Under the pieces are notes generated by a model. It worked only from the letters and a program-made list of their open reading frames with translations. It made no database searches and was not told where the DNA came from. Both the position numbers and the translations under genes were made by a program. 24,365 nucleotides of DNA from Candidatus Nanohalobium sp. (lineage in GTDB: Archaea; Nanohalarchaeota; Nanosalinia; Nanosalinales; Nanosalinaceae): assembly GCA_042217555.1 (NCBI GenBank), contig JBDGSL010000063.1, forward strand, positions 1 to 24,365, read 5' to 3'. The first letter of the stretch is position 1. Every line of letters starts with the position of its first letter. Below are positions 1-24,365 of this stretch, in pieces.

Positions 1-105
1 GGTTTAAATCGTAACAAAGAGTGGAAGAAGACCTATGACGGGGAACAGGTGTTTGAAGAGGCGAAGAAAGAGGTAGAGGAAGCTGAGAACGGTGTCACAA
101 TCTAG
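1..105 (+). CDS. 3' end of an unidentified gene entering from the left edge (…GLNRNKEWKKTYDGEQVFEEAKKEVEEAENGVTI*)
   Basis: Frame 1 is open from base 1 to TAG at 103-105, with E/K-rich codons. The stop overlaps the opposite-strand stop in CTAG. Confidence 0.6.
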   Translation, partial: GLNRNKEWKKTYDGEQVFEEAKKEVEEAENGVTI

Positions 106-671
106 AGGTCGTCGATTATGTCCTCCAGATTTTCTCTGAACCGGTCATACCCCATCGTGTTCTGCATGGATTGAGGGGACTTCCTCTGGTATCTGTAGAA
201 TAGTTCCTGCAGGATCTCCGTCTTTGGTTTAACCGGGTTGATTCCATGCGATTCGGCGTACTCTCCAAGAGCCACCGATTCTCTTCCCTGGCCCGGTGTC
301 TCCTCCATCCTGAAAGGTTCTACCTCCTTTTCCTCCAATACTATCTCCTTGCTGTAGTCCTCTTCGTATGAGTCGACGAGGCCGCGGAAGTAGAACCCGT
401 CGGCAGGATCTCCACCTTCTCTTATCATGCCGGCAGCTATCTTAACTTCTTTCCCACCTGTTTCCTGGCTGTGGTTCTCTGTGAAGACGATGTCGTTATC
501 CCTACCCGGTTCAGGTTCATCGTAACTGTTAAACCATTCCAGAGCTTTCCCAGCATCCATGCCGTACTCTTCCCTGCACAGCTCTTCCATGTCGCTGTAA
601 CTCTGAAACTCGGGGTAGAACTCCTGCAGTTCCTCAAAAGCCGCCATCTTCCTGTTTTGCTGCATTGACAT
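102..671 (-). CDS. Hypothetical acidic protein, 189 aa
   Basis: Long E/D-rich ORF with ATG start, preceded by GAGGGG; begins 12 nt after the upstream ORF stop. Confidence 0.7.
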   Translation of the reverse strand: MSMQQNRKMAAFEELQEFYPEFQSYSDMEELCREEYGMDAGKALEWFNSYDEPEPGRDNDIVFTENHSQETGGKEVKIAAGMIREGGDPADGFYFRGLVDSYEEDYSKEIVLEEKEVEPFRMEETPGQGRESVALGEYAESHGINPVKPKTEILQELFYRYQRKSPQSMQNTMGYDRFRENLEDIIDDL

Positions 672-1380: not shown

Positions 1381-1561
1381 TTCGGTCGATGCCCCGGTAA
1401 TCTTCCTCCTGAGTTGAAGGAAAGAACGGAAACACTCCGACCTACTTTCTCCTGCATCACTTATACAGGATAACAGGTTTAGAGAAAGAATCTGGCGTGG
1501 CAGTCACACAGCTGGTGGATCTACCGTTCACATGTTTCAGATATGCTGCTGTGTGGGTCAT
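1381..1561 (-). ncRNA. Structured RNA element, copy 1 (conserved core)
   Basis: P1 CACACAGC/GCUGUGUG; P2 UCCUGUAU/AUGCAGGA; AGUA-GGUCGG…UCGACC-GAA; UUCCUUC-AACUCA-GGAGGAA. Homologous to copies 2 and 3. Confidence 0.7.
1457..1561 (-). CDS. Putative 34-aa micropeptide MTHTAAYLKHVNGRSTSCVTATPDSFSKPVILYK
   Basis: ATG 22 nt after the TATA box, TGA at 1457-1459. Same length and termini as copies 2 and 3. Confidence 0.45.
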   Translation of the reverse strand: MTHTAAYLKHVNGRSTSCVTATPDSFSKPVILYK

Positions 1562-1583
1562 GCCCAAGCCTTAGAATTCAGGA

Positions 1584-1591
1584 TTTAAAAA
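1584..1591 (-). promoter_or_regulatory. TATA box of element copy 1
   Basis: TTTTTAAA followed by TCCTGAA, 22 nt before the ATG. Confidence 0.65.
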
Positions 1592-1683
1592 CTTTCTGCA
1601 CGAAACTGTAGTTCTTCAGTTCCTGTGGGCGGAGTTATCCGGCGGTTTAGACCGGAGTTGTTACACAGAAGAAGGGTGTTTCT

Positions 1684-2163
1684 TCACTTTCTTCTAAAGG
1701 CCTGGTAGAAAAGGTCTCTGTCTGCGTTTCTGGAGCCCCAGGCAGTCAGTGAATCCTGTTTTTCGATGTTTTCGTCCAGTTTTTTCACAGCTTCCTCTGC
1801 TAGTTCACGTGTAACTTCTTTACCTTCCATGCTGTCTTCCACATCTGTTTTCACGACGTCTACACGTATGTAATTGTTCTCTGTGAATGGCAGAATATCT
1901 TTAACTGAGTAAAGTTTCGGAGTGATCTCTGAAATCTTCTCAGGGACTTCTTCTCCCCGGGCTTCCGCTATCCTGTAGCCCTGAAGATCTTCTTCAACAC
2001 TGACCTTCTTGACGTAATCAACTCCCTTCTCCAGCACAGAATAGCCCTGTAGCTCGTTGTATCCTTTTCTCTTCCTTTCTTCACTGTCTTCCAGCATTTC
2101 CATTCCGTTAACAAACTCTCTGCATCCAAGTTTCTCCAGTACATCATCCCTGTCGTATAGCAT
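1684..2163 (-). CDS. Hypothetical acidic protein, 159 aa
   Basis: E/K-rich ORF with ATG start; no recognisable motif. Confidence 0.7.
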   Translation of the reverse strand: MLYDRDDVLEKLGCREFVNGMEMLEDSEERKRKGYNELQGYSVLEKGVDYVKKVSVEEDLQGYRIAEARGEEVPEKISEITPKLYSVKDILPFTENNYIRVDVVKTDVEDSMEGKEVTRELAEEAVKKLDENIEKQDSLTAWGSRNADRDLFYQAFRRK

Positions 2164-2278
2164 TATATCTCTACCCTTATATTTACTTTATGAGGTCTCT
2201 AGATCCATATCCACTGTTTCAGGACCGAAAGATTATATACTGCTGCAGAAGAAACCAAGACAGGTTACAGACTATTCG

Positions 2279-2306
2279 AGAGAAAAGAAAGAGAAAGGGA
2301 AAAAGG
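2279..2306 (-). terminator. Oligo-pyrimidine terminator, probably ending the copy 2 transcript
   Basis: CCTTTTTCCCTTTCTCTTTCTTTTCTCT on the minus strand, an archaeal U-rich type. Confidence 0.5.
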
Positions 2307-2502
2307 TGTGAACTGCCGTCACGTTACGCGTTTTTTAGTTACATCGGGAAGGTTTCACGTCCGTTGTCGAAGCTGTAAGCGTGTTTTTTCCTGTTTCGTG
2401 TCTGGTGCGTCGGGTCGTGGATCTGCCCTGTTGCGTGGTGGAACCGGATTCTACGTTTTGGTATCTGTTTTTTCCTGGATGGTAAATGGCCGATTTTTTT
2501 GT

Positions 2503-2680
2503 TTCAGTTGGTTCCTTCGCCTGGTTCCCTGAGTTGGGATCCGGGCAAGGAGCCGCGCCAACCTACTTTACCCTGTCACGGTTTATACAGGGTAAACAGA
2601 TCGGACCCGATATTTGAGAAGATATACCTGGATCTCACCGAGTCCACATGCAGGGCCGGAAGATGACTCGTGTGAGACAT
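2503..2680 (-). ncRNA. Structured RNA element, copy 2 (conserved core)
   Basis: P1 UCUCAC-A-CGAGUC/GACUCG-GUGAGA; P2 UUACCCUGU/ACAGGGUAA; AGUA-GGUUGG…CCAACU-GAA; UCCC-AACUCA-GGGA. Confidence 0.72.
2576..2680 (-). CDS. Putative 34-aa micropeptide MSHTSHLPALHVDSVRSRYIFSNIGSDLFTLYKP
   Basis: ATG 22 nt after TTTATAAA; TGA at 2576-2578 in the P2 hairpin. Confidence 0.45.
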   Translation of the reverse strand: MSHTSHLPALHVDSVRSRYIFSNIGSDLFTLYKP

Positions 2681-2702
2681 ATCTATACTATACAATCCAG
2701 GG

Positions 2703-2710
2703 TTTATAAA
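2703..2710 (-). promoter_or_regulatory. TATA box of element copy 2
   Basis: TTTATAAA followed by CCCTGGA, identical to copy 3; 22 nt before the ATG. Confidence 0.7.
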
Positions 2711-2882
2711 CCTTGGGAAAGAAGCAGGTAAGACCTGAAATACTGCAGGAGAAGTTCTATTATCTGAAAGAATTGAGGATTAACTGTATGTCTCAGGCCT
2801 TAGAACAGAACCTTTAAAAAAGTTCCGATGTGTTATTGGCTGGTGAACACCTGTTTTAGGTGTTTTAAGCCGTGATTGAGGT

Positions 2883-2901
2883 AAAAAAGAAAGAAGAGAG
2901 G
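2883..2901 (-). terminator. Oligo-pyrimidine terminator, probably ending the copy 3 transcript
   Basis: CCTCTCTTCTTTCTTTTTT on the minus strand. Confidence 0.5.
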
Positions 2902-3114
2902 TCAAGGTTGTCGTGATTTGCCGTTCTTCTGTCCTGTGTGACCTGGTTTTATCGTGTCTCGTGTGAAACCTGTTTTCTCCATGAGGGTTTTTCCAAGTGG
3001 TTCGGATCTGATCTGCTGATGACGGAAGCGTTTGCTATTGTATACTGGGTTCTGGCTGTGTTTAAGTAGTTTTTATCCGGTTTTTCTCTTCAAGGAGGAA
3101 CATGTCCGGCATAT

Positions 3115-3297
3115 TTCGGTTGAGGTCTCTTGCCCGAGGTCCGCTGAGTTGCGGGCCAGGCCAGTTTTCCCCAACCTACTTATCCTGTATCAGAAATACA
3201 GGATAGTCAGATTGGAGAACCACTTAGAAATATAGGTCACACAGCGACGGCTGGACACGTTCATTCTGCCTGCCGCGAAATGTGCTGCGTGACTCAT
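3115..3297 (-). ncRNA. Structured RNA element, copy 3 (conserved core)
   Basis: P1 GUCACGCAGC/GCUGUGUGAC; P2 UAUCCUGUAU/AUACAGGAUA; AGUA-GGUUGGGG…CCUCAACC-GAA; CCGC-AACUCA-GCGG. Confidence 0.72.
3190..3297 (-). CDS. Putative 35-aa micropeptide MSHAAHFAAGRMNVSSRRCVTYISKWFSNLTILYF
   Basis: Internal ATG of track ORF 3190..3387, lying 22 nt after TTTATAAA; TGA in the P2 hairpin. Confidence 0.45.
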   Translation of the reverse strand: MSHAAHFAAGRMNVSSRRCVTYISKWFSNLTILYF

Positions 3298-3319
3298 ACC
3301 CTTACTTTGCATTCCAGGG

Positions 3320-3327
3320 TTTATAAA
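3320..3327 (-). promoter_or_regulatory. TATA box of element copy 3
   Basis: TTTATAAA followed by CCCTGGA, 22 nt before the ATG. Confidence 0.7.
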
Positions 3328-3416
3328 TGTTCGGTTCGATGTTACGCAGTCTTTCCAGATGCTGTAGTTACCATTAAAGTGTAACATTTAAGTGTTGTGT
3401 TTTTGTGTTTGTGACT

Positions 3417-4586
3417 ATGGAAGGTGTTTCGCTGGAGGAGTCGGAAGGGTTTCTCTCCGATCTTGAGGAGGTGAAACGTGAGCTGGAGAGGAAGCCTGAC
3501 AGGGCTGTTGAGCATCATGGCGTTGATGACACGGTTGAGGCAGCGCAGGAACTCTTGAAAGATATCAACTCCGGCGGTTATGTCGATCCTACTTTCTACG
3601 TGAAGAAGGCTGAGGGGAAGGAGGATGTGGGGCCTTTCCATGATTTAATTGATTTTGATCCACGTGAGGTTCTTGAAGATGGTTCTCCTGCTGATCTTGA
3701 TGGGAGAGAGGTTCAGGAGTTACGTAGGCAGGGTATAGAGCTGCGTAATGTGGTGGAGTACAGTGAAGATCTGTACGATGATCTGAGGCCTTACCTGCCT
3801 GAGGAGATGAGGGAGGCTGCTGAAGAGTACAGTAAAGGTAAAATCGAGGAGATGCAGATAGATCCCGAGAGTCTTCCATGGCTGGAAGGCGTTCATGCGC
3901 TTAGGGCGGCAGTGATGAGAAAGATGGACATGGCTGACTCCAGCTTCTTTGAGAACGGTCTTGACTACAGCGAGGAAAAAATGGAGAGGATATTTGAAGA
4001 CTACTTTGAGGAGTACGAGGAGGGCTTTCTTCCCAGGATCAGTCCTGAGTACAGTAAGGCGGTACTGAACTACCTCATAGATTCTGCAGAAGAGGAACTG
4101 GACCGGATAGAAGACGGGAGGACTGTGAAAAAAGAGCCACCAGGAGGCCGAAACCCGAGTTCTCAACAGGAGAAAGATGAAAAAGAAGTGCAGCCGGATT
4201 GGCTCTCCGACAGGGGAGAAACCCGGCTTGTATTTGACCGGGTTCCTGAAGGTCCAGAAGAGGTTTACAGGAAGGGAGCGAAGTTTCTGCATGAGTACGG
4301 TGGGATAGACCCGGATATTCTGGCCGAGGTGATAGCTCAGGCCCGGAACGACATGGATAAGAAAGGACTTGTGGAGGGTTACGACTTCAAAGAGGAGGAG
4401 CTTCCTGGCAGGGAGATCAGGGGTGCAGAGTACTTCAACGAACTGAAAGAGGCCTTCATGGATATAAGTGAAGACGAACTTGTGGATGCTGTTGGATACG
4501 GTAAGGGCAGGCTAAGGGACAGACAGAGGATTTTAGCAGGTATAAGGTACACGGAGAGAAACTTTATGAGGGAGGAAGAAGTTTAA
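3417..4586 (+). CDS. Hypothetical very acidic protein, about 389 aa (start MEGVS)
   Basis: Long ORF; TTTAAGTG (3387-3394) lies 22 nt before the ATG at 3417; T-rich tract after the stop. Confidence 0.8.
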   Translation: MEGVSLEESEGFLSDLEEVKRELERKPDRAVEHHGVDDTVEAAQELLKDINSGGYVDPTFYVKKAEGKEDVGPFHDLIDFDPREVLEDGSPADLDGREVQELRRQGIELRNVVEYSEDLYDDLRPYLPEEMREAAEEYSKGKIEEMQIDPESLPWLEGVHALRAAVMRKMDMADSSFFENGLDYSEEKMERIFEDYFEEYEEGFLPRISPEYSKAVLNYLIDSAEEELDRIEDGRTVKKEPPGGRNPSSQQEKDEKEVQPDWLSDRGETRLVFDRVPEGPEEVYRKGAKFLHEYGGIDPDILAEVIAQARNDMDKKGLVEGYDFKEEELPGREIRGAEYFNELKEAFMDISEDELVDAVGYGKGRLRDRQRILAGIRYTERNFMREEEV

Positions 4587-18019: not shown

Positions 18020-18511
18020 ATGGATTTTGCCCGGTCGGTTTACGTCTACAAGGTTTTCAGAAATATCTTTATTGATGGTGAAAGTTACAGTGTCCAGCTT
18101 GAGTTAAAGCACGGCCTGGACGACGAGGAGGCGGAACAGGTTATACTTGAAGCCTCAGATAAGGACTTTCTTGAAGTAGTCAAGGATTCTGACCCACGGA
18201 GATACGAGATTAACTATGACCGGTTGCTGGAGCTGTGGTACAGCCTGTGGAGTGAAGAGATAGGTGAACGGCCTGTGACGCCAGAAAACTTTGAAAGCTT
18301 TCTCAGAAGTTACTGCAGATCATACTTCCAGGGAGAAAAACACTCTACAATGAAGGAAATGCTGGTCGACGAATTCTACCTTGCAATCAACAGCAAATCC
18401 GAGAAACTTGTGATGCCCGCTGATTTCAGAGAGCTGAGAGATACATTGAACGAGTTTGAAGGTAAGAGAGCGCCTGCAGAACACTTCCAGTACGGCCTCA
18501 ACCACAGATAA
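18020..18511 (+). CDS. Hypothetical acidic protein, 163 aa
   Basis: ORF with ATG start and a TATTTAA box upstream. Confidence 0.7.
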   Translation: MDFARSVYVYKVFRNIFIDGESYSVQLELKHGLDDEEAEQVILEASDKDFLEVVKDSDPRRYEINYDRLLELWYSLWSEEIGERPVTPENFESFLRSYCRSYFQGEKHSTMKEMLVDEFYLAINSKSEKLVMPADFRELRDTLNEFEGKRAPAEHFQYGLNHR

Positions 18512-18540
18512 CCCTCCTACCCCTCCCTCTCTTGACCGGC

Positions 18541-18590
18541 CTTATAAAGATGGAGGGTCTATCATTGTTTACAACTTAATAAGGAGGTGA
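18541..18590 (+). promoter_or_regulatory. TATA box (CTTATAAA) and strong Shine-Dalgarno (AAGGAGGTGA) of the cold-shock gene
   Basis: Both motifs are visible directly; the SD ends 10 nt before the ATG at 18601. Confidence 0.7.
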
Positions 18591-18600
18591 GTTTTTGTTT

Positions 18601-18798
18601 ATGCAAGGTACAGTAAAGTTCTTCCACGATGGAGACGGTTACGGATTCATCGAAACGGAAGAAATGGACGACGACGTTTTCTTCCACTTGAGCGAACTAC
18701 CTGAAGGAGTCGACGACGTAGAAGAAGGAGAAGAAGTCGAGTTCGACCAGGAAGAAGGCGACAGAGGTCCAAAAGCAGTCAACGTAGAACTGGCTTAA
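18601..18798 (+). CDS. cspA: Cold-shock domain protein
   Basis: GTVKFF, RNP1 GYGFI, RNP2 VFFH, GPKAVNV. Confidence 0.95.
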   Translation: MQGTVKFFHDGDGYGFIETEEMDDDVFFHLSELPEGVDDVEEGEEVEFDQEEGDRGPKAVNVELA

Positions 18799-18988
18799 AT
18801 AGAGACACTCTGCCCTTTCCCTGTTTTCTCAGGCAAAGGTTAGAGGCCCGATTCTACAAATTTACCCTATTTCTCAATTTTCCCTACCACTACTTCACAG
18901 TCTTCCAGCAGACATGTACAGTTACTATTTGTTCTACTCCTTCACACACACCTGAAGAAGCCTCCTGGCAAACGCACAAAACCGCATA

Positions 18989-20640: not shown

Positions 20641-21468
20641 ATGTCAGAAGTCAAATGTCCGACCTGTGGTAAGGAAGATTTCAGTAATGAAAACTACATG
20701 AAGAGGCACCATAAATTGAAGCATGACGAAAGCCTTGTAGAAAAATACGAGTGCTCTGTAGATGGATGCGATAATAAGACACGTAACCCTAAATTCTGTA
20801 GCGATGAGTGTATGAGTAAAGCCCGTAGACAATATGAAGAATCTGAATGTAAGAATCTGGAATGCGATGAAGAAGTCTACAAGAAAGAATACTGTTCAAG
20901 AGATTGTGCCAACAGCCATACCTGGAGGAATAGAGACAATGCAGCAAAGAGGGATGAAGTAAGAGAGAAGCTTTCGGAGATGAGGACAGGAGAGAAAAAT
21001 CCATTCTACGGTGAGAAACATACCAAAGAAGCACTTAAAAAGATATCAGAATCCCAAACTGGAGAAAAACATCATTTCTATGGAGTCACTGGAAAAGACC
21101 ATCCGAGCTATGGGGTAGCATCAGGACTCAAACTTCAGACAGTAGAAGAAACAGGCCACACAGTGAGATCCAACTGGGAGAAAGAAATCGATCTGATGCT
21201 TCATGAAGCAGGAATAGACTACAAATACGAACCGAAAACATTCGAACTTCCCAAAGGGAACACCTACACACCGGACTTCATAATAAGAGGAGAAATAGTA
21301 ATCGAAGTCAAAGGCTGGCCAGACGACAAATCAAAGAAAAGAGCAGAACTATTCATGCAAGAATATCCAGAATATCAGTATATGGTGGTTGGAAACGAGA
21401 TACCATGCGAAAGATTTGTTAGTTGGAACAATCGCTCCAATCTGATTGAACTTCTAAAGCAGACCTAA
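20641..21468 (+). CDS. Zn-finger/NUMOD3/PD-(D/E)XK endonuclease (homing-endonuclease-like)
   Basis: C2H2 finger, two Cys-rich repeats (FCSDEC, YCSRDC), NUMOD3-like GEKNPFYGEKHT, and RSNWE…YEP…YTPDF…IEVKG nuclease core. Confidence 0.85.
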   Translation: MSEVKCPTCGKEDFSNENYMKRHHKLKHDESLVEKYECSVDGCDNKTRNPKFCSDECMSKARRQYEESECKNLECDEEVYKKEYCSRDCANSHTWRNRDNAAKRDEVREKLSEMRTGEKNPFYGEKHTKEALKKISESQTGEKHHFYGVTGKDHPSYGVASGLKLQTVEETGHTVRSNWEKEIDLMLHEAGIDYKYEPKTFELPKGNTYTPDFIIRGEIVIEVKGWPDDKSKKRAELFMQEYPEYQYMVVGNEIPCERFVSWNNRSNLIELLKQT

Positions 21469-22056: not shown

Positions 22057-24365
22057 TCAGCACTTTGAATATCCACATTCGGGGCATTTGTTGCATCCTT
22101 CTTGTAGGACGAGCATGCCTCCGCATTCTGGGCATTCTGGGTTTTCTCCGTCTTGTACGATGCTTGCTGCATCTGCCTGTTGTTCTGTCTCTGTCTTTGG
22201 CTTGGTCTCGCCCATGTCTTCCTGCTTCTCTTGTGGTGTCTCGTACTGGTCTACGGTTTGTTGTTCGCCGTCCTGTACCTGCATGTGGCGTTTCATTGCT
22301 TCTGCGATTGCGTCGGGTACTGAGTGGATCTGTGTTCCCTGGTCCCATGCGATCTGCGGGCTGCGGATGTCGTCGAGTTGTTTGATGACGTCTTCGCCTG
22401 TTGCACCGCTACGTAGGGCTAAAGAAGTCATTCTTCCTAGTGCCTGTGTGAAGCTCTGTGTGTAGCCTCCGGATTTGCCGAGGTTGGCGAATACTTCGAA
22501 CGGTCCGTTGTTTTCGCTGTTGTTGATTGTTACGAAGAGGTCTCCGTAGGCTGTTTCTATTTCCTGTGTGGTTCCCTGTGCGACTTTCGGCCTTTCCTTG
22601 ACGTTCGGCTTGTTGCCCATGTTGGTGTGTCCGCCTTCTGTGGATGTGTCGGCTTCGACTCCTTCCTGGGTTACTTCTTGGCTGAGGTCTTCGGTGTCTT
22701 CTTCCTGGACTTCCATGTCCGTGTCGCCGACAACTTCCTGGAACTCGTTGGACTGTATCAGTTCTTCCGTTCCGCCGAACTCTTCGATGACTTCGGAGAG
22801 CATATCCACCTTGTCCATGTCAGTCAACGTGTTCTCCTTGTTGGTCTGCATGACCTGTGTTTCTCTTGTTCCGTCACGGTAGACTGTCATGCCTTTGACG
22901 TCTTTGTCGTAGGCACGCATGTAGGCTTCCCTGACATCGTCCTTGGTTGCCTCGTTCGGGAAGTTGCATGTCTTGGAGATTCCGGAGTGGTTGTGTGCCT
23001 GGAATGCTGCCTGGATGTCGATGTGTTCCTCCGGTGTTACCTGGTCGGCTGTGGCGAAGATCTCCTTCACGTCTGCCGGAAGAACTTCGTCCGGGATGGA
23101 TTCGACGCCTTCCCATTCGTTGTTCTCCATCTTTTCCTGAGCAGCTGCCTTGACTTCCTCGATGTCGACGTCGTTGGCTTCCAGGGCTTTGATGAAGTAG
23201 TCGTCGAACTCGACGAGCATGTCTTCTCCCTGGATGTCCTTGGCGACGTTCTTGAAGTACGCCAGCGAATAAATCGGCTCGCATCCTCCGGAAGTGTTCC
23301 CGATCATGGAAGTTGTTCCGGTTGGAGCGATTGTCGTTGTGTTGTGGTTCCTCATCTTGAGTCCGTCCTCGAACTCTTCAGGATCAAGGCCTCCTGTGTA
23401 TGCGCGGAACCATTCCTCGTGTTCCGTCGGGTTTGCCCACTTGGATTTCTCCCATTCAGGGAACTCTCCTCTAACATCGGCAAGCCTGTTGGATTCCTCG
23501 ATTGAGAAGCGTGTGATGATCCTCTGGATCTCTTTCGCGGCTGCGACTGATTCGTCGCTTCCGTAGCGGATTCCCAGCTGGATCAGCATCTGTGCGAATC
23601 CCATGAGGCCCAGTCCGACTTTTCTGAGTGAGGAGACCTTGTCCTCGATCTCTTCAAGCGGGAAGTCGGACATTGTCACGACGTTGTCCAGGAAACGCAT
23701 TCCTGTCTTGGCTACGCGTTCGAACTCTTCCATGTCGAGTGCTTCCTGGATGTAGTCCTTCATCGCGTCCTCAAGTCCTTCCTGTGTGGAGAAGTCATAC
23801 TCTCCAGAGTGTTCCTGTTTCCATTCTGCAAAGCTTAAAGCAGTTTCATCGCCTTTATCATCCACAAGAAGGCTTAGGTTGATGTGTCCGAGGTTGCAGG
23901 CCTCGTAGTTCTCCAACGGCTGTTCACCACAGTTGTGAACTACTAATCCATTGGCTATGAAGCTGTGCGTGTCTGGCTCTGTCAGGTCGTAGACGTCTTC
24001 ATGTCCGTCCTTCTCTAAGGAGACTACTCTTGCCGTGAACTTTTCTCTGTAAGGTCCTCTTGTGTAGTTGGAGAGTTTCTCTTCGAGTTTCTGGTTTTTG
24101 TCTTCTCTGAGGAAGCCAATCTTTTCCTGGAACTCTAAGAGAGAGCCTTTACTGATCATCAAGTCGTGCTGTGCCTTGATGTCGTACTCCTTCATGCCTC
24201 CCTTGCCGTCCGGCATCTCTCTTCTTCCTTCTTCTCTTCTCTCCGTGTAAACCTTGCTGTAGATCCCGAAGTTGAGTAGCAGTTGCTGTGTCTCCTTGAG
24301 AAGTTCTTCGTCGCTGCTGGAAAGCCTTACAGACACTCCTTTTTCGACGTTGCCCTGTACGGAGC
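22057..24365 (-). CDS. nrdJ: Class II (AdoCbl-dependent) ribonucleotide reductase, intein-containing, 5' partial
   Basis: CGEQPL…[42 protein letters not shown]-like domain (SVPDAIA) and C-terminal CPEC…CPECGYSKC. Confidence 0.95.
23932..24365 (-). mobile_element. Intein (C-terminal part, LAGLIDADG endonuclease type) in nrdJ
   Basis: Block F VYDLTEP, block G GLVVHN followed by Cys+1 (23929-23931); endonuclease remnants LLLNFGI and FQEKIGF. Confidence 0.93.

Follow-up and report, generated by a model that had tools for sequence, protein, structure and literature searches.

We describe here a new family of predicted structured RNAs from Nanohaloarchaea, in which a short leaderless open reading frame (ORF) is joined to a conserved hairpin domain in an architecture that lies outside every class tested. 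Three diverged copies are found on the minus strand of the window, the 24,365-nucleotide stretch analysed (positions 1-24,365 of contig JBDGSL010000063.1) from the 1.31-Mb genome of Candidatus Nanohalobium sp. (GCA_042217555.1). From its 5' end each unit consists of a TATA box, the AUG, a hairpin P1 within the ORF, a linker, a hairpin P2 with the stop codon in its loop, a larger hairpin domain P3, and an A/C-rich tail. The element is almost certainly a real gene under selection. Its promoter spacing, open frame, stop position, pairing in P1, P2, and P3, Shine-Dalgarno (SD)-like word with no start codon behind it, terminator-like tract, and stand-alone position are direct observations. The signature is one in which the act and the end point of translation have been selected more than the peptide. 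Given that the kept features all concern the ribosome and that there is no downstream gene to regulate, we tentatively favour an RNA that would be transcribed, translated, and thereby switched into a binder or holder of ribosomes or small ribosomal subunits. Structured non-coding RNA classes are barely charted in the DPANN archaea (Diapherotrites, Parvarchaeota, Aenigmarchaeota, Nanoarchaeota, and Nanohaloarchaeota), and this one is retained by roughly half the members of a taxonomic family with genomes of 1 Mb.

A leaderless frame with a conserved end

Among 52 copies, the gap between TATA box and AUG is 22 nt in 32, 23 nt in 18, 24 nt in one, and 28 nt in one; a spacing of 22-23 nt is that of leaderless genes, as established for haloarchaea. 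The first-pass annotation of the window had placed TATA-YCCTGRA exactly 22 nt before the AUG. The gap is correct for the window copies, but it varies in the wider family and YCCTGRA is not kept there. Downstream of the AUG, the first in-frame stop falls at codon 31-39 in all 31 full-length genome copies, and the other two frames contain a stop over the same stretch in 31/31 and 27/31 copies. In 30 dereplicated copies no stop at all occurs at the variable codons 6-17 and 22-27, where 18.1 and 13.2 would be expected. Most ORFs have 35 codons (41/52), nine others having 30, 33, 33, 34, 34, 36, 38, 55, and 55. Lengths differ by whole codons. This holds also for a 60-nt insertion, which adds two hairpins to the linker in frame and gives a long form of 55 codons (L142:447-740, L146, L157, and protein P0004), seen in two different lineages.

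All three stop codons are used (UGA 38, UAA 9, and UAG 1 of 48), and the distance from stop to P3 is 13 nt in 46/52 copies and 10-14 nt in 50/52. Going by footprint sizes, a ribosome terminating at such a distance would have P3 at its mRNA entrance. The metagenome loci were retrieved with a pattern that required UGA or UAA in the P2 loop, so they are evidence for the preceding frame only and not for the stop. A dual function had been suggested as possible from the window; the conservation of frame and stop position across the family argues for it more strongly than could then be known. Read-through into a conserved protein was rejected as the frame beyond the stop is not kept.

The peptide is weakly constrained, with a ratio of nonsynonymous to synonymous differences (pN/pS, NG86) of 0.93-1.04; a stricter ratio from the single-base codon changes of 20 independent pairs is 0.63 in frame versus 0.96 and 0.75 in the shifted frames. 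Only M1, L33, and Y34 are invariant in 33 aligned peptides. Compared with base shuffles, from which shared ancestry was not removed, Leu (6 versus 54 expected), Pro, and Asp are low and Ser, Phe, Tyr, Asn, and Lys are high. The peptides gave no Pfam family and no usable Atlas match, and the four matches of a peptide profile search were two family members called as proteins and two repeat proteins.

Conserved pairing and a possible switch

Pair counts bear out that homologues keep the pairings. These counts cover 31 genome copies and 40 pairs in P1, P2, P3a, P3b, and P3c, one pair lying in a gap column, and relatedness inflates such counts: 92% of cells are paired, 26/40 pairs show changes on both sides, none of 500 shuffles was as high, and slid controls reached 29-45%. 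P3 is the most conserved part of the RNA, more so than the peptide. Its basal helix P3a is 98% paired and is flanked by invariant AGUA and GAA, the pattern of a loop E (sarcin-ricin) motif. Both AAGUAGGUYGG and ACYGAA, listed at first as separate elements, are present; in fact they are the two sides of P3a. The loop C-AACUCA-G varies at one position only in a 46-row alignment.

Hairpin P1 begins 1-7 nt into the RNA. Its region has a mean folding energy of -20.9 kcal/mol versus -11.2 (standard deviation 4.4) for 41 other leaderless genes, none of which is as stable, so initiation would be easiest before P1 is complete. An alternative helix, in which the 5' strand of P3a pairs with CCAAUCU before P2, is predicted in 45/47 growing and 30/47 full transcripts. 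P3a is predicted in only 12/47 full transcripts, and in 36/47 once the RNA up to 15 nt past the first base of the stop is removed. A switch from P2 to P3, modelled in this way, is plausible.

Other structures did not hold. A helix closing a three-way junction (YCYG with CGGR) was not accepted (57.5% paired, 66/500 shuffles as high), and by-eye comparison with bulge-helix-bulge introns, hammerhead and hepatitis delta virus-like ribozymes, selenocysteine insertion sequence elements, and T-boxes revealed no fit to their patterns.

A tail with a start-less Shine-Dalgarno-like word

The unit had been taken to end at ACYGAA. It instead continues for 100-260 nt, up to a pyrimidine tract in copies 3 and 2 (Table 1), and this tail, the SD-like word, and the terminator-like tract are additions to the first description. 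In a set of 48 tails, 31 from genomes and 17 from the 24 metagenome loci (duplicates, truncated, and damaged loci being left out), an A/C-rich stretch of 100-200 nt past P3 is followed under a fixed rule by a pyrimidine/U tract in 39/48, giving predicted RNAs of about 300 or 385 nt. The word AGGUGA(U) stands at +46 in the short class and at about +148 in the long class. A match of at least 6 nt to the SD consensus is found in 29/48 tails versus 3.3 expected, at these two fixed places, and has a start codon behind it in 1/29. The complementary anti-SD is present at the 16S end of 5/5 complete relatives searched. In this genome the same SD words precede 57/471 genes, and the tail word is the commonest of them.

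Pairing of the SD-like word with an internal partner immediately past P3 was rejected (-5.3 versus -5.1 kcal/mol in shuffles, 3/36 at p<0.05). The tails hold a second word, CAGCUA or ACGCUGC, in 13 and 17 of 48 versus 1.1 and 0.5 expected. ACGCUGC(C), as found in those 17/48 copies, is identical to the 3' end of the 5S rRNA on contig G000:C20, which may be chance.

The three copies in the window

Three minus-strand segments with a common ordered architecture had been reported here, and all of the listed elements are found where they were placed (Table 1). The copies share 46-53% identity. The patterns AAGTAGGTYGG and TATA-CCTG occur three times each in the 1.31-Mb genome, always within the copies, and nhmmer detected no fourth copy in this genome. 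Compared with 200 shuffles each, the fold z-scores are -5.03 for copy 3 and -3.83 for copy 2 (each 0/200 as good) and only -1.37 for copy 1 (21/200). The P3 hairpin loop is CAACUCAG in all three, and YGAA ends at 3115, 2503, and 1381. As copy 2 clusters with copies of two other species of the genus (support 100/99), that duplication is old. Copy 1 forms a long branch in the tree, most deep branches of which lack resolution.

A word resembling the orphan promoter between copies 3 and 2 also sits between two copies in another genome (G002). The acidic ORFs around and between the copies (window 102-671, 684-1250, 1684-2163, and 3405-4586) match no Pfam family above cut-off.

Table 1. Features of the three copies in the window (BRE, transcription factor B recognition element)
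Feature	Position	Strand	Remarks
Copy 3 promoter	BRE 3334-3328, TATA box 3327-3320	minus	AUG 22 nt downstream
Copy 3 leaderless ORF	3190-3297	minus	AUG at 3297; 35 codons + UGA (3192-3190) in P2 loop; peptide end I-L-Y-F
Copy 3 hairpin P1	3236-3293	minus	begins 2 nt past AUG; 10/10 pairs with two-sided change, 81% of cells paired
Copy 3 CCAAUCU strand	3209-3215	minus	can pair with 5' strand of P3 (alternative helix); 82% paired, no covariation
Copy 3 hairpin P2	3182-3205	minus	loop holds last sense codon and stop; 96% of cells paired; core CCUGUAU..CAGG
Copy 3 P3 domain	3115-3180	minus	AGUA 3180-3177; 21-bp interrupted hairpin 3176-3118; loop C-AACUCA-G 3151-3144; GAA 3117-3115
Copy 3 tail	2902-3114	minus	A/C-rich, folds weakly; SD-like site of the family (2960-2945) degenerate
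Copy 3 pyrimidine/U tract	2881-2901	minus	terminator-like
Orphan BRE/TATA between copies 3 and 2	2794-2826	minus	72% like copy 1 promoter; no AUG or unit behind
Copy 2 TATA box	2703-2710	minus	AUG at 2680, 22 nt downstream
Copy 2 leaderless ORF	2576-2680	minus	34 codons + UGA; end L-Y-K-P, hydrophobic-Tyr-X end lost
Copy 2 P3 domain	2503-2567	minus	AGUA 2567-2564, stem 2563-2506, loop 2536-2529, GAA 2505-2503
Copy 2 A/C-rich tail and pyrimidine tract	2280-2502	minus	degenerate SD-like site 2362-2351; tract 2306-2280
Copy 1 TATA box	1584-1591	minus	AUG at 1561, 22 nt downstream
Copy 1 leaderless ORF	1457-1561	minus	34 codons + UGA; end I-L-Y-K
Copy 1 P3 domain	1381-1446	minus	AGUA 1446-1443, stem 1442-1384, loop 1416-1409, GAA 1383-1381; diverged, changes compensatory
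Copy 1 tail	1272-1380	minus	short; no SD-like word, no terminator tract found; runs into TATA of next gene (1271-1263)

Distribution and genomic setting

A first pattern search found relatives in 6 of 36 genomes of the same taxonomic family. A covariance model built from nine copies was then searched against 70 genomes of the order, which are all of the phylum's genomes examined. The RNA family is present in 28/70: besides this genome, in 27/49 others of the same taxonomic family and in 0/20 across four other families. Among genomes at least 90% complete, 16 of 28 have it. A relaxed pattern and a P3-only model returned the same 28 carriers. Copy number is one in 25 carriers, two in 2, and three in this genome. 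All named carriers are Nanohaloarchaea, including Nanohalobium and Nanosalina, and named carriers with complete genomes are Nanosalina sp. VS9-1, strain M3_22, and SG9. The initial idea, that these are paralogous structured RNAs with promoters of their own in a DPANN archaeon and form a family absent from Rfam, is supported.

GTDB-wide pattern searches yielded 67 and 29 stretches. Those that pass the models all belong to Nanohaloarchaea, apart from one record labelled 'uncultured archaeon'. The 10 and 5 pattern matches in viral contigs did not pass the models, and weak P3-model matches in two non-carrier genomes (E 0.14 and 0.73) were rejected as they lie antisense inside protein genes. Metagenomes gave 24 loci, of which 20 were used, leaving out three duplicates and one truncated duplicate. 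PMC7002113 names STRG.4577.1, a nanohaloarchaeal RNA of 266 nt from an intergenic region that is conserved and expressed. It may or may not correspond to the RNA described here; if the two are the same, both expression and novelty could be affected. The literature searched, in which coverage of subscription journals was poor, yielded no description of the present RNA.

The next gene at 28 loci is co-directional in 17, convergent in 9, and absent in 2, and the gene families concerned are unrelated. At 9/28 loci a neighbour has its best match in this genome within the 24-kb window, suggesting inheritance in one shuffled region rather than transposition. Among the candidates compared, co-occurrence gave no partner: aRF1/Pelota and baeRF10-like domains are in 50/50 genomes of the family, so neither tracks the RNA, and reverse transcriptase, found in 7/70 genomes (6/28 carriers), does not track it either.

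In the gene for release factor aRF1 of this genome (G000:C75:12335-15253, plus strand), the catalytic GGQ is immediately followed by an insert of some 500 residues that resembles an intein, starting with Cys, ending His-Asn, and with Ser next to it. Frames of 917-973 amino acids for aRF1 are also present in G005, G008, G012, G016, G035, and G072. In the window, 20641-21468 (plus) encodes a homing endonuclease-like protein of the NUMOD3/phage endonuclease I type, and a nearby class II ribonucleotide reductase at 22057-24365 (minus), named by eye, starts like an intein end. One of two reverse transcriptases (L208, G000:C75:50621-54226, and L209), L208, lies behind a gene that by eye resembles the target of a diversity-generating retroelement.

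A model of ribosome holding and the points against it

Under the model that we tentatively favour, a ribosome would likely load on the leaderless AUG before P1 folds. On reaching the stop codon it would likely melt P2 and the competing helix, so that P3 could form at the mRNA entrance. P3 and the start-less SD-like word, which would sit on an unstructured tether, may then hold the ribosome or the small subunit, possibly for damping or storing ribosomes in a host-dependent cell. Were this the case, it would represent a form of RNA-based translational control for which the literature searched describes no archaeal counterpart.

A number of observations weigh against this account. The RNA was not found in 22/49 other genomes of the taxonomic family, one closed genome among them, so it is not essential. 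The SD-like word is absent or degenerate in 19/48 tails. Every copy of this genus is among them, the three in the window as well as the four others, which counts against the word being essential. The alternative helix is 82% paired with covariation in 0/8 pairs, 52/500 shuffles being as well paired, and it is better than shuffled linkers in only 17/47 copies. When a plain 30-nt footprint is blocked, P3a is formed in only 15/31. With regard to the ORF, two copies of 55 codons imply that 35 is no strict length, the last codon is free to vary, and one metagenome copy (L151) has a 1-nt deletion, whether genuine or introduced in sequencing, that stops its frame at codon 9. The second copy in G009 (SG9, L024:3947-4130) has the promoter and an intact P3 with a different 5' half, and its frame reads through P3 to give 59 codons ending L-Y-V.

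Alternative explanations

The main alternative is a message whose product is the peptide. Its C-terminus, a hydrophobic residue, tyrosine, and any residue (HbYX), would dock on the alpha ring of the 20S proteasome and open or block the gate, the RNA structure serving to ration and stabilise the message. Judged from sequence, we consider this somewhat unlikely, albeit with a real chance; if true, the peptide would be a free proteasome-gate peptide. Hydrophobic-Tyr-X precedes the stop in 48/52 ORFs. Of the long acidic ORFs in this genome, 4/697 have such an end, and PMC11475706 gives 0.93% for archaeal proteins. Genes for one alpha and two beta proteasome subunits are present in the genome, as is one for a Cdc48-like ATPase with Y-Y-A at its C-terminus. 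However, the motif was spotted only after looking at the data, and it is lost in window copy 2, G019, the only copy of G018, and the broken L151. RNA pairing alone is enough to explain the hydrophobic-Tyr-X end: the I-L-Y codons form the 5' strand of P2, 24/24 copies in the 35-codon class are free of synonymous changes there, and in G003 and G019 these codons change together with the bases that they pair with. In favour of the peptide, two copies (the second of G002 and that of G019) retain Tyr although its base has no pairing partner. The second G009 copy still ends L-Y-V, outside P2 and with another Tyr codon, giving a single independent clue that the C-terminus may be selected. The departure of the amino-acid composition from base shuffles points the same way but is explicable by common ancestry, and the greater conservation of P3 argues against a peptide product.

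An aCPSF1-like gene, identified by eye, follows each of the two proteasome beta genes (L121 and L122; G000:C20 and C73). Two identical 5S starts occur as well, whereas only a single alpha gene was detected.

The ribosome-binding and HbYX readings are compatible, and the peptide may have a second job beside the role of the RNA. In a combined scheme the ribosome would serve the RNA as a switch, a single round of leaderless translation bringing the RNA into its active fold, and would then be trapped by the loop E hairpin at the mRNA entrance and the start-less SD decoy. The released 35-residue peptide would signal the proteasome through its HbYX end, so that protein synthesis would be coupled to protein degradation in a symbiont prone to dormancy. 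We regard this full scheme as unlikely.

A trans-acting regulatory RNA or protein sponge, in which P3 with its invariant loop and loop E binds a protein or targets and the ORF only protects or refolds the RNA, would be in keeping with P3 being the most conserved part and surviving in a copy with another 5' half, and with a promoter and terminator-like tract of its own. The 266-nt expressed RNA named in PMC7002113 would also suit it. This explanation leaves the fixed 13-nt distance from stop to P3 and the SD-like word without explanation. By eye, the P3 loop does not covary with the 5' end or the stop, and its complement is unmatched in three 16S stretches. A trans-acting role of this kind seems distinctly unlikely.

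An attenuator of the SpeFL/TnaC type, with a leader peptide controlling a downstream gene and the U tract as a conditional terminator, is improbable. The anatomy is shared with speFL and the next gene is co-directional at 17/28 loci, but the other loci include 9/28 that face a convergent gene or another copy, the downstream genes have no common family or pathway, a separate TATA box lies 22 nt ahead of the AUG of the gene that follows copy 1, and the U tract lies 180-330 nt past the stop, beyond the reach of a stalled ribosome. Least probable of all is a selfish or addiction element (a non-autonomous mobile element, RNA toxin, or reverse transcriptase template RNA): its neighbours change, tandem copies occur in 3/28 genomes, and the tree follows genera only loosely, but the RNA is single-copy in 25/28 genomes, has neighbours best matching this window at 9/28 loci, lacks terminal inverted repeats, and has no match beside the genome's six TnpB-like or two reverse transcriptase loci or any true match in viral contigs; reverse transcriptases are present in only 7/70 genomes and 6/28 carriers.

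Comparison with known systems

The first-pass annotation had recognised no known RNA class, and a search of the window against Rfam 15 agrees, with no match at the copies. Elsewhere it gives only a tRNA and a weak match to the bacterial cspA thermoregulator (21 bits, cut-off 78) at a cold-shock protein gene (18459-18842, plus). In 14 homologous loci, Rfam 15 gives seven chance-level matches (18-22 bits). Archaeal RNase P and signal recognition particle RNAs were ruled out as the genome has separate genes for them (C29, E 7e-11, and C20, over cut-off, respectively). H/ACA and C/D guide RNAs were rejected with no Rfam match and, by eye in the 46-row alignment, no conserved tandem G-A pairs or invariant ACA. 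An omega RNA of TnpB/IS200-IS605 or a miniature inverted-repeat transposable element was rejected for lack of tnpB linkage, element ends, or high copy number. A template RNA of a retron, defence-associated reverse transcriptase, or diversity-generating retroelement was set aside as the RNA is neither linked to nor co-occurring with reverse transcriptase. Type I toxin-antitoxin mRNAs were rejected as the peptides are polar, Ser/Thr-rich, Leu-poor, and not membrane-spanning, although an antisense partner was not searched for.

Loop E or sarcin-ricin motif hairpins are known from 5S rRNA, 16S h27, and domains of the hepatitis C virus internal ribosome entry site. The invariant AGUA and GAA flanking a helix resemble them, and the 16S rRNA of this genome has the same pattern. 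However, the motif is generic, and no longer resemblance to the rRNAs of this group was found. The proteasome activators with an HbYX end (PAN, Cdc48/VAT, and PAN-2; PMC11475706) are matched by the C-terminal hydrophobic-Tyr-X in 48/52 ORFs and the presence of 20S genes. Unlike them, the predicted peptide here would be free, with 30-59 residues and no ATPase or known fold, and its motif doubles as an RNA helix strand.

The messenger-like domain of transfer-messenger RNA (tmRNA) likewise places a short ORF in a structured RNA with its stop within a helix unwound by the ribosome, and encodes a tag of 8-35 residues read by proteases (PMC3968760). In contrast, the RNA described here starts at its own leaderless AUG, and neither a tRNA-like domain nor a pseudoknot ring is present. 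No tmRNA was detected with ARAGORN or Rfam, and the frame is open from the 5' AUG with no internal resume codon. With the speFL and tnaC leaders (10.1101/604074) it shares about 34 codons, the use of any stop codon, a 3' hairpin melted at the stop, and an aromatic C-terminal half. It differs in having no regulated operon, weakly conserved residues, and a large conserved RNA domain with an orphan SD-like word in place of a Rho utilization (rut) site. The last codon is free, and classic termination-arrest peptides differ in this respect.

Dual-function small RNAs such as SgrS/SgrT, SR1/SR1P, and RNAIII are small transcripts with an ORF and a conserved non-coding part, combining a conserved peptide with an antisense seed. 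The RNA of Nanohaloarchaea likewise combines an ORF and a conserved non-coding part in one small transcript. It differs from them in that no target pairing was found and that the frame and its stop are kept more than the residues.

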